Source: Eledone cirrhosa
Taxonomy: Eukaryota
DNA: 64,000 nt
Reading direction: 5' to 3'
NCBI GenBank assembly: GCA_964016885.1
Contig: OZ024740.1
Coordinates: forward strand, 54,126,001-54,190,000
A program made the translations under genes and the position numbers. Numbering within the stretch: the stretch's first letter is position 1; each line of letters starts with the position of its first letter. The notes under the pieces are model-generated. The model searched no databases. It saw nothing but the letters and a program-made list of their open reading frames with translations, and had not been told where the DNA came from. This document shows positions 61,067 to 64,000 of this stretch, in pieces.

Positions 61067-61068
<2 letters not shown>

Positions 61069-64000
61069 TATAGACATAGAATATTCGAAAATATTCTGTA
61101 TGTTTATAATAAACATTTTGAAGACCTAATCGCTATAGAATAGAATACGTCACGTATTAAAATTAGATTCTCGATAAAAGCAAGGGAAGTAATCTACGCG
61201 TTTCATTCTTGTTAGAATTCATCAGGACTACATATCCAGTGCTTTTATCGAGAATGACACAGCTAGAGACTTATAGAATACTTAGCTGTGTACTGGAACT
61301 GGTTTGAAAGAGCGGTTGCCGGTCCGGCAGAAATTAGAAATTGGAATAAATGCTCTGAAATAGCGATATATATGTGAGTATAGACATAGAATATTCGAAA
61401 ATATTCTGTATGTTTATAATAAACATTTTGAAGACCTAATCGCTATAGAATAGAATACGTCACGTATTCGAATATTCTATGTCTATACTCACATATATAT
61501 CGCTATTTCAGAGCATTTATTCCAATTTCTAATTTCTGCCGGACCGGCAACCGCTCTTTCAAACCAGTTCCAGTACACAGCTAAGTATTCTATAAGTCTC
61601 TAGCTGTGTCATTCTCGATAAAAGCACTGGATATGTAGTCCTGATGAATTCTAACAAGAATGAAACGCGTAGATTACTTCCCTTGCTTTTATCGAGAATC
61701 TAATTTTAATACGTGACGTATTCTATTCTATAGCGATTAGGTCTTCAAAATGTTTATTATAAACATACAGAATATTTTCGAATATTCTATGTCTATACTC
61801 ACATATATATCGCTATTTCAGAGCATTTATTCCAATTTCTAATTTCTGCCGGACCGGCAACCGCTCTTTCAAACCAGTTCCAGTACACAGCTAAGTATTC
61901 TATAAGTCTCTAGCTGTGTCATTCTCGATAAAAGCACTGGATATGTAGTCCTGATGAATTCTAACAAGAATGAAACGCGTAGATTACTTCCCTTGCTTTT
62001 ATCGAGAATCTAATTTTAATACGTGACGTATTCTATTCTATAGCGATTAGGTCTTCAAAATGTTTATTATAAACATACAGAATATTTTCGAATATTCTAT
62101 GTCTATACTCACATATATATCGCTATTTCAGAGCATTTATTCCAATTTCTAATTTCTGCCGGACCGGCAACCGCTCTTTCAAACCAGTTCCAGTACACAG
62201 CTAAGTATTCTATAAGTCTCTAGCTGTGTCATTCTCGATAAAAGCACTGGATATGTAGTCCTGATGAATTCTAACAAGAATGAAACGCGTAGATTACTTC
62301 CCTTGCTTTTATCGAGAATCTAATTTTAATACGTGACGTATTCTATTCTATAGCGATTAGGTCTTCAAAATGTTTATTATAAACATACAGAATATTTTCG
62401 AATATTCTATGTCTATACTCACATATATATCGCTATTTCAGAGCATTTATTCCAATTTCTAATTTCTGCCGGACCGGCAACCGCTCTTTCAAACCAGTTC
62501 CAGTACACAGCTAAGTATTCTATAAGTCTCTAGCTGTGTCATTCTCGATAAAAGCACTGGATATGTAGTCCTGATGAATTCTAACAAGAATGAAACGCGT
62601 AGATTACTTCCCTTGCTTTTATCGAGAATCTAATTTTAATACGTGACGTATTCTATTCTATAGCGATTAGGTCTTCAAAATGTTTATTATAAACATACAG
62701 AATATTTTCGAATATTCTATGTCTATACTCACATATATATCGCTATTTCAGAGCATTTATTCCAATTTCTAATTTCTGCCGGACCGGCAACCGCTCTTTC
62801 AAACCAGTTCCAGTACACAGCTAAGTATTCTATAAGTCTCTAGCTGTGTCATTCTCGATAAAAGCACTGGATATGTAGTCCTGATGAATTCTAACAAGAA
62901 TGAAACGCGTAGATTACTTCCCTTGCTTTTATCGAGAATCTAATTTTAATACGTGACGTATTCTATTCTATAGCGATTAGGTCTTCAAAATGTTTATTAT
63001 AAACATACAGAATATTTTCGAATATTCTATGTCTATACTCACATATATATCGCTATTTCAGAGCATTTATTCCAATTTCTAATTTCTGCCGGACCGGCAA
63101 CCGCTCTTTCAAACCAGTTCCAGTACACAGCTAAGTATTCTATAAGTCTCTAGCTGTGTCATTCTCGATAAAAGCACTGGATATGTAGTCCTGATGAATT
63201 CTAACAAGAATGAAACGCGTAGATTACTTCCCTTGCTTTTATCGAGAATCTAATTTTAATACGTGACGTATTCTATTCTATAGCGATTAGGTCTTCAAAA
63301 TGTTTATTATAAACATACAGAATATTTTCGAATATTCTATGTCTATACTCACATATATATCGCTATTTCAGAGCATTTATTCCAATTTCTAATTTCTGCC
63401 GGACCGGCAACCGCTCTTTCAAACCAGTTCCAGTACACAGCTAAGTATTCTATAAGTCTCTAGCTGTGTCATTCTCGATAAAAGCACTGGATATGTAGTC
63501 CTGATGAATTCTAACAAGAATGAAACGCGTAGATTACTTCCCTTGCTTTTATCGAGAATCTAATTTTAATACGTGACGTATTCTATTCTATAGCGATTAG
63601 GTCTTCAAAATGTTTATTATAAACATACAGAATATTTTCGAATATTCTATGTCTATACTCACATATATATCGCTATTTCAGAGCATTTATTCCAATTTCT
63701 AATTTCTGCCGGACCGGCAACCGCTCTTTCAAACCAGTTCCAGTACACAGCTAAGTATTCTATAAGTCTCTAGCTGTGTCATTCTCGATAAAAGCACTGG
63801 ATATGTAGTCCTGATGAATTCTAACAAGAATGAAACGCGTAGATTACTTCCCTTGCTTTTATCGAGAATCTAATTTTAATACGTGACGTATTCTATTCTA
63901 TAGCGATTAGGTCTTCAAAATGTTTATTATAAACATACAGAATATTTTCGAATATTCTATGTCTATACTCACATATATATCGCTATTTCAGAGCATTTAT
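61067..64000 (+). mobile_element. Tandem array of 310-bp hammerhead-containing units (non-LTR retrozyme/pLTR-like): ~1.3 inverted units (61067-61467), then >=8.2 direct units running off the window
   Basis: cgctatttcagagc at 61501, 61811, 62121... (period 310); units appear identical; left end abuts (TA)n. Confidence 0.93.
61611..61699 (+). ncRNA. Minimal type I hammerhead ribozyme, one per unit (cores at 61641, 61951, 62261, 62571, 62881, 63191, 63501, 63811; inverted copy core 61219-61225)
   Basis: gtagtc CTGATGA attct-aaca-agaat GAAA cgcg TA gattac; distal stem I attctcgataaaagca / tgcttttatcgagaat (16 bp); predicted cleavage after GUA at 61671. Confidence 0.88.

Follow-up and report, generated by a model that had tools for sequence, protein, structure and literature searches.

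A young two-armed 310-bp repeat family in Eledone cirrhosa, probably a non-LTR retrozyme inserted by a Penelope-like enzyme

The right-hand end of the 64,000-nucleotide stretch of Eledone cirrhosa DNA analysed here (the window) is occupied by a repeat with a 310-bp unit of about 34% GC, in which we number position 61467 as phase 1. From this position a forward array runs with a period of 310 and 100% identity between units; 8 whole units and 54 bases lie in the window, which bears out the count of at least eight identical units given in the initial annotation. The full forward arm has 13.19 units and ends on (TA)n at G000:C1:54191556, 1,556 bases past the window, and one of its units beyond the window end carries a singleton change. 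The initial annotation had also described 61067..64000 as one tandem array. This is correct from 61467, but 61067-61468 proved to be an exact reverse copy of 1.30 units, covering unit phases 242 to 23, which is joined to the forward arm 5′-to-5′ and has its outer end on (TA)n. The whole insertion is thus ordered (TA)n / inverted arm / forward arm / (TA)n (Table 1), its arms directly adjoining (TA)n with no LTR structure at the insertion. Over the array we found no ORF of at least 150 aa, and the RT and GIY-YIG ORF of an autonomous Penelope-like element is absent from it. The two sites in the unit at which insertions of this family end, designated A and B, would be the starts of reverse transcription, and the stretch between them equals the Penelope 'tail'.

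Table 1. Features of the insertion and of the predicted hammerhead domain in the first forward unit (window coordinates).
Feature	Position	Strand	Basis
(TA)n microsatellite, left target flank	61006..61066	.	sequence
Inverted arm, 402 bp; short (A) outer end; one hammerhead, core from 61225, predicted cut after 61195	61067..61468	-	
5′-to-5′ arm junction, 2-nt overlap	61467..61468	.	
Forward arm, 8.2 identical 310-bp units in window, 13.19 total; phase-60 long (B) end on (TA)n	61467..64000	+	
Unit phases 21-67, both insertion-end sites: A 21-34, B 58-67	61487..61533	+	
Type I hammerhead domain, first forward unit; recurs every 310 bases	61611..61699	+	
Perfect 16-bp helix	61611-26/61684-99	+	pairing read off sequence
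Stem I, 6 bp, one G-U	61635-40/61672-77	+	pairing read off sequence
CUGAUGA	61641-47	+	
Stem II, 5 bp	61648-52/61657-61	+	pairing read off sequence
GAAA	61662-65	+	
Palindrome ACGCGU; predicted cut after 61671 (phase 205; GUA at phase 203-205)	61665-70	+	

Several other repeats lie in the same window. An older relative of the unit, 69-81% alike across phases 264-105, is placed back-to-back between (TA)n runs at 5727-7047 and carries a different, decayed hammerhead-like module, with more copies at L083, L103, L113, L131, L133, L137 and L139. At 12975-13045 and 35774-35910 lie short hammerhead islands whose stem II is of the same sequence type but whose stem III is longer; the second is a small two-armed palindrome in (TA)n. 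A back-to-back repeat at 7350-8500 has units of about 530 bp and the CUGAUGA motif (7482, 8009 on the minus strand, 8318 on the plus strand), and at 55795-55900 a relative of the Hydra-type coding family described below has its hammerhead-bearing end. The minus strand also holds a 1043-aa LINE-type frame (endonuclease, RT, zf-RVT; 19265-22393) and a Penelope-like RT/endonuclease fragment (500-1453) that is 40% like the 796-aa family considered below.

CUGAUGA...GAAA...GUA cores were found eight times on the plus strand and once on the minus strand, so that the proposal of a complete hammerhead core in each unit is upheld from the sequence. The proposed 5-bp stem II, 6-bp stem I, perfect 16-bp helix and ACGCGU palindrome are likewise all present; the 16-bp helix, however, is not a continuous extension of stem I but is separated from it by an 8x6 internal loop. 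The 89-nt hammerhead domain has a predicted folding energy of -31.8 kcal/mol (z -6.9), with 0/200 shuffles as good, and the whole unit gives z-scores of -5.2 as a linear monomer and -4.6 as a circle. In the suggested check against the Rfam hammerhead models no family reached its gathering score with the unit, and the only hammerhead match, HH9, scored 23 bits (E 0.0059) where 52 are required. Matches to Rfam miRNA families were rejected as the hairpin formed by the inverted junction.

We also considered how two domains might act together. The best predicted cofold of a pair of domains is a double hammerhead (-71.5 vs -63.6 kcal/mol). In the predicted fold of a tandem dimer, under a model without kissing pairs, the units keep their own helices and form no cross-unit stem III, and given this retention of each unit's helices the cleavage of dimers may be slow. 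At position 10.1-11.1 the window haplotype has A-U and most of the family U-U, not G-C. For comparison, the text of a recent preprint reports that only 1/9 Xenopus dimers was cleaved in vitro (10.64898/2026.07.22.740005).

The unit is not confined to this locus. The genome-wide copy count that had been proposed as a check returned 16,261 exact matches of a 30-base stretch of the unit, dispersed over the 3.0-Gb genome and corresponding to about 5 Mb. The junction of phase 60 with (TA)n has 948 exact matches genome-wide. Reversed controls have 0. From the 17 loci counted over the first 36 Mb of the list, with insertions averaging 8.2 units, we estimate that the family comprises roughly 1,400-2,000 insertions. 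Copy number and dispersal support the view that the amplification was recent.

We then compared the ends of individual insertions in two samples, the first consisting of 20 regions picked by identity and not by their ends, and the second of 80 regions from the first C1 matches of the junction search, which gave 82 insertions anchored on the phase-60 end; in the second sample the phase-60 end is therefore selected while the partner end is free. In the first, 17/20 regions were two-armed with one A and one B end (21-34 and 58-67), 2 had one arm and 1 had two direct arms. In the second, 74/82 insertions were two-armed, 68 directly and 6 after more DNA had been fetched, and the partner end lay at phase 13-34, mostly 20-34. 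None of the 82 insertions had two phase-60 ends. Among the remaining 8, 6 show one arm and 2 have arms of at least 23 and at least 30 units that run past the fetched DNA. Where the B end is phase 60, the spacing from A to B is 26-39 nt. By a crude filter (TA)n was found on both flanks of 50/74 two-armed insertions, one flank being selected; the window insertion has both.

The inner ends of the arms follow no such rule. Across 65 simple cases the 130 inner ends show a uniform distribution over the phases (p 0.27); 5 of them lie near the predicted cut, where 5.5 are expected. The arms have median lengths of 3.1 and 3.7 units, and 115 of the 130 exceed one unit. The predicted cut position itself has 3 deviations in 728 units. 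These results modify the earlier suggestion that monomers are re-inserted: insertion as such is supported, but what is inserted is a whole two-armed multimer in one event rather than monomers one by one, and its ends lie 126-165 nt downstream of the predicted cut. Perfect unit identity and an inverted junction might also be produced by collapsed, polished or chimeric fold-back reads. We regard such an assembly or library artefact as extremely improbable, given more than 100 loci that differ in flanks, junction phase, length and haplotype, have fixed biological ends and carry scattered singletons.

The pairing of ends recalls the Penelope-like elements. According to the published text, these often carry an inverted 5′-truncated copy as well as a tail of 30-40 bp at one end; the Hydra and Naiad families target (TA)n (PMC8557442). 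The purified anole protein, as described in the text of that study, cuts the two strands and extends them, starting from two internal sites of the RNA between which the tail lies; the start sites are identical on both strands, and cleavage is dispensable for insertion (PMC11167929). The 310-bp family displays the corresponding marks, with an inverted copy beside the forward copy in 74/82 insertions, a tail at one end only and a (TA)n target.

As a control we examined a coding element from the same genome, an 821-aa Hydra-type element with a hammerhead. Its protein is not recognised by Pfam and aligns weakly to an RT/GIY-YIG protein (E 2e-6), and HTH_animal (25-38% of members) or GIY-YIG is found in its look-alikes; it has the Hydra motifs DKT, CxCX5C, CxxC and CxH, with RWT instead of RWK. 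Nine back-to-back pairs of this element were fetched. Five could be read at both ends, and in 5/5 a short end was paired with a long one, the two lying about 90 nt apart; one other pair gave one end and three gave no row, and a chance pair in L052 also fits the short/long rule. Unit phases 264-105 are also present in older non-coding families, which end at corresponding places, and we infer that this stretch may be the enzyme's signal. The coding family itself (L224-L232, L052) is young, with intact 821-aa frames, copies 97-99% identical, and a hammerhead before the ORF and about 1 kb after it; its tail, of about 90 nt, is longer than the published 30-40 bp.

Since the 821-aa family shows no likeness to the 310-bp unit, it serves as a control and not as the partner element. 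Homology to the unit was absent from all three coding families compared, out of many in the genome, namely the 796-aa RT/GIY-YIG family, the 821-aa Hydra-type family and the coding element beside L032. Searching with a loose-end motif taken from a sequencing run gave 0 matches, and a survey of 1.0 Mb of fetched DNA found more Hydra-type fragments and no link to the unit. The 796-aa family (L172-L180) is a young Penelope-like family with an RT/GIY-YIG frame, an upstream frame and a microsatellite-filled 3′ region, and no hammerhead match was found next to its frame.

To evaluate the ribozyme we compared inherited variants, which are fixed in an insertion, with singletons. None of 29 inherited variants damages the core, stem III or the helices, against 31/122 singletons (p 0.0007). 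The inherited variants are located in loops, at N7 or at 10.1, or they preserve a pair, and the core and stem III are unchanged. Within the helices pairing is kept by 6/6 inherited variants and 2/24 singletons, although five of those six are A>G, which is pairing-preserving by nature. These data back selection on the ribozyme fold, with cleavage itself a prediction. On the sense strand the inherited variants lean towards A>G (9 sites vs 4 for T>C, p 0.07; 15 vs 4, p 0.003, when separate backgrounds are counted by eye), a lean that the singletons lack (9 vs 12). A-to-I editing of an RNA template would give such a lean, and template switching could also cause such repeats.

Dispersal, end structure, the coding Hydra-type control and the sparing of the fold together support the retrozyme identity and the Penelope-type insertion put forward in the initial annotation. 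Pure, long arrays would also be expected of a satellite amplified at the DNA level, through extrachromosomal DNA circles, rolling-circle replication and fold-back, in which the hammerhead is a relic. This process would leave unexplained the two fixed ends paired one of each, a coding Penelope-like element obeying the identical end rule, the sparing of an RNA fold and the sense-strand A>G lean of the inherited variants, and we consider it improbable.

Given a retrozyme moved by reverse transcription, the variants carried by its copies bear on the form of the template. In an alignment of 223,575 interior bases we counted 125 variants that are fixed throughout their insertion, being present in every unit and mostly in both arms, and 129 singletons, none at an allele fixed elsewhere; only 23 variant rows are intermediate, 11 of these being one deletion and 12 substitution rows. 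The family resolves into 29 haplotypes, and the units of an insertion nearly always share a single one in both arms. The window haplotype differs from the majority at phases 22, 106, 182 and 240. Its letter at phase 240 occurs in 70 units at 13 places, whereas the full haplotype occurs at 2 only, this locus and L032, whose arms have 4.3 and 2.4 units; the 13-unit arm of the window is longer. Two loci likewise carry a second rare haplotype, their arms having 11+6 matches in one and 7+2 in the other. A variant seen once in the sample turned out to be a lineage of 353 units at many loci, so that a 'private' variant is not necessarily a new one.

A cut linear monomer would yield only 165 nt from phase 60, which implies that the template is a circle or a multimer, and no scars of jumping between monomers are found at the cut site. 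A single-unit circle is one way of meeting this constraint. The other is that the same enzyme and twin priming use a mostly uncut or partly cut linear read-through multimer, with length regained by local duplication and a hammerhead that is structural or rarely cuts. Evidence for the linear multimer comes from mosaic insertions among the 82. In L095 (G000:C1:136719382-136726382) the outer two units of both arms have one haplotype and the inner units another, a switch exactly two units in for which one monomer circle does not account, and in L079 the outermost unit of both arms has a common change; in L071 the haplotype switches in one arm only. L095 and L079 show that the two arms had a common starting unit, and imply either a linear mixed multimer, the simplest case, or a joint template switch. 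In four long arms (L062, L063, L081, L136) singletons recur, which shows that there was some later local duplication or that templates were multimeric; in a period-7 test of L063 the arm stops before the next expected repeat. The insertion of the anole element without cleavage in vitro, as given in the text of that study (PMC11167929), the weak stem III and the non-canonical 10.1-11.1 pair also fit a linear template.

The remaining variant data point towards the circle. Both arms cover the same round, counted from the outer end, in 205 units of 68 insertions, where 58 substitutions are present in one arm only and 2 insertions have any shared substitution; about 29 would be expected if linear donors carried today's load, a figure that would be lower with younger donors or if some of the singletons are errors. 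A linear multimer would also need a one-unit bottleneck and then one-step growth for each of the 29 pure haplotypes. A pure donor array would, however, give a pure daughter under the circle or the linear model, and a single assembly may miss donors. Growth by duplication sits poorly with 129 singletons against 12 intermediate substitution rows, and a hammerhead that seldom cuts sits poorly with the constancy of the core and stem III in inherited variants. On balance the circle fits best, with the two mosaic insertions pointing to linear multimers or joint template switching. We consider it likely that a monomer circle is the main template, and unlikely that mostly linear multimers fill this role.

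Sequencing runs were searched for the unit as well. An RNA run containing it was not found among the runs listed, and 20 of the 24 listed, under 18 organism labels, have at least half of the unit words. Eight runs were assembled, one of which gave 553 contigs at very high depth. Runs X4, X5, X6, X10, X13 and X16, which carry other organism labels, each gave a single closed contig of 340 nt (once 331 nt) with no flanks, at depths of 7-365 and with one haplotype each, differing between runs. Horizontal spread would be one reading of these contigs, but stray long reads of one array would give them too; contigs also drop variants, and the Hi-C run of a single-contig label has 0 reads. The depth of 365 in X16 is high for a stray read.

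These data allow us to propose how the locus arose. It is probably one insertion of a young non-LTR retrozyme family, with a 310-nt non-coding unit and a predicted hammerhead, made by a Penelope-like RT-endonuclease that primes both DNA ends on one RNA, probably a monomer circle. In this scheme arrays would be transcribed by read-through, the hammerheads would cut, probably as dimers via the ACGCGU palindrome, and the monomers would be ligated into circles. A Penelope-like protein would then cut both strands of (TA)n, one DNA end priming at a phase of about 60 and the other at 21-34, each presumably helped by 2-8 nt of TA microhomology. Each enzyme would circle its template for a median of 3-4 units and up to about 30, and the two cDNAs would be joined 5′-to-5′ at random phases with little or no microhomology. 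A minority of insertions would probably derive from linear multimer templates, or from both enzymes switching template together. More tentatively, and with rather less than even confidence, an RT dimer might grip both (TA)n cut ends, make staggered starts in one unit of one circle, roll in register and jump as a pair to a second circle.

The family was compared with known systems. As described in the main texts, metazoan non-LTR retrozymes are similarly non-coding, low-GC tandem units of ~300 bp with a type I hammerhead, found as dispersed multimers; the 1-bp helix III under a palindromic tetraloop resembles that of axolotl HHR_Amex1, and the U-U at the base of helix II, present here in most copies, that of HHR_Amex2 (PMC7229834; 10.64898/2026.07.22.740005). 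The same texts propose Penelope-like elements as helpers of these retrozymes. An inverted second arm, fixed paired ends and a (TA)n target do not feature in their main-text descriptions, and RNAs are detected for the published retrozymes whereas the family here is known from DNA alone. Circle-templated copying was put forward in 2020, in that text as a proposal only (PMC7229834), and the text of the 2026 preprint leans to local amplification (10.64898/2026.07.22.740005).

The Penelope-like elements of the Hydra clade and anole Poseidon resemble the family, in their published texts, in having tandem copies with an inverted 5′-truncated copy, a tail at one end, (TA)n and a hammerhead upstream of two internal start sites (PMC8557442; PMC11167929). 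The retrozyme differs in having no ORF and up to about 30 units per arm, and in its lack of likeness to the three coding families checked; a strict pairing of one short with one long end per insertion is not stated in the text of either paper. The hammerheads of Penelope pseudo-LTRs, according to the text, share a small palindromic helix III and are expected to act as dimers; in their minimal motifs helix II is 7-8 bp long, one additional base separates 9 from 10.1 and the pair at this position is G-C, whereas the hammerhead here combines a 4-5-bp helix II with A-U or U-U and lacks the additional base (PMC4209133). By its sequence the family fits the definition of a non-LTR retrozyme, and it appears to work like a Penelope-mobilised element. 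Our literature search, which covered mostly listings, found no described two-armed retrozyme or Penelope twin priming.

In the published texts, how retrozymes enter new DNA sites and how the inverted copies and tails of Penelope-like elements arise are open questions (PMC7229834; PMC8557442; PMC11167929; 10.64898/2026.07.22.740005). The present family is young and its variants mark single events. It supplies exact start sites and run lengths, as well as a 310-nt substrate that an existing in vitro assay could use, and offers a genomic way to weigh a circular against a linear template. If the RT-dimer reading is true, each two-armed array would be a dated record of the runs of both enzymes, and ribozyme cleavage and ligation would be the bottleneck under selection.
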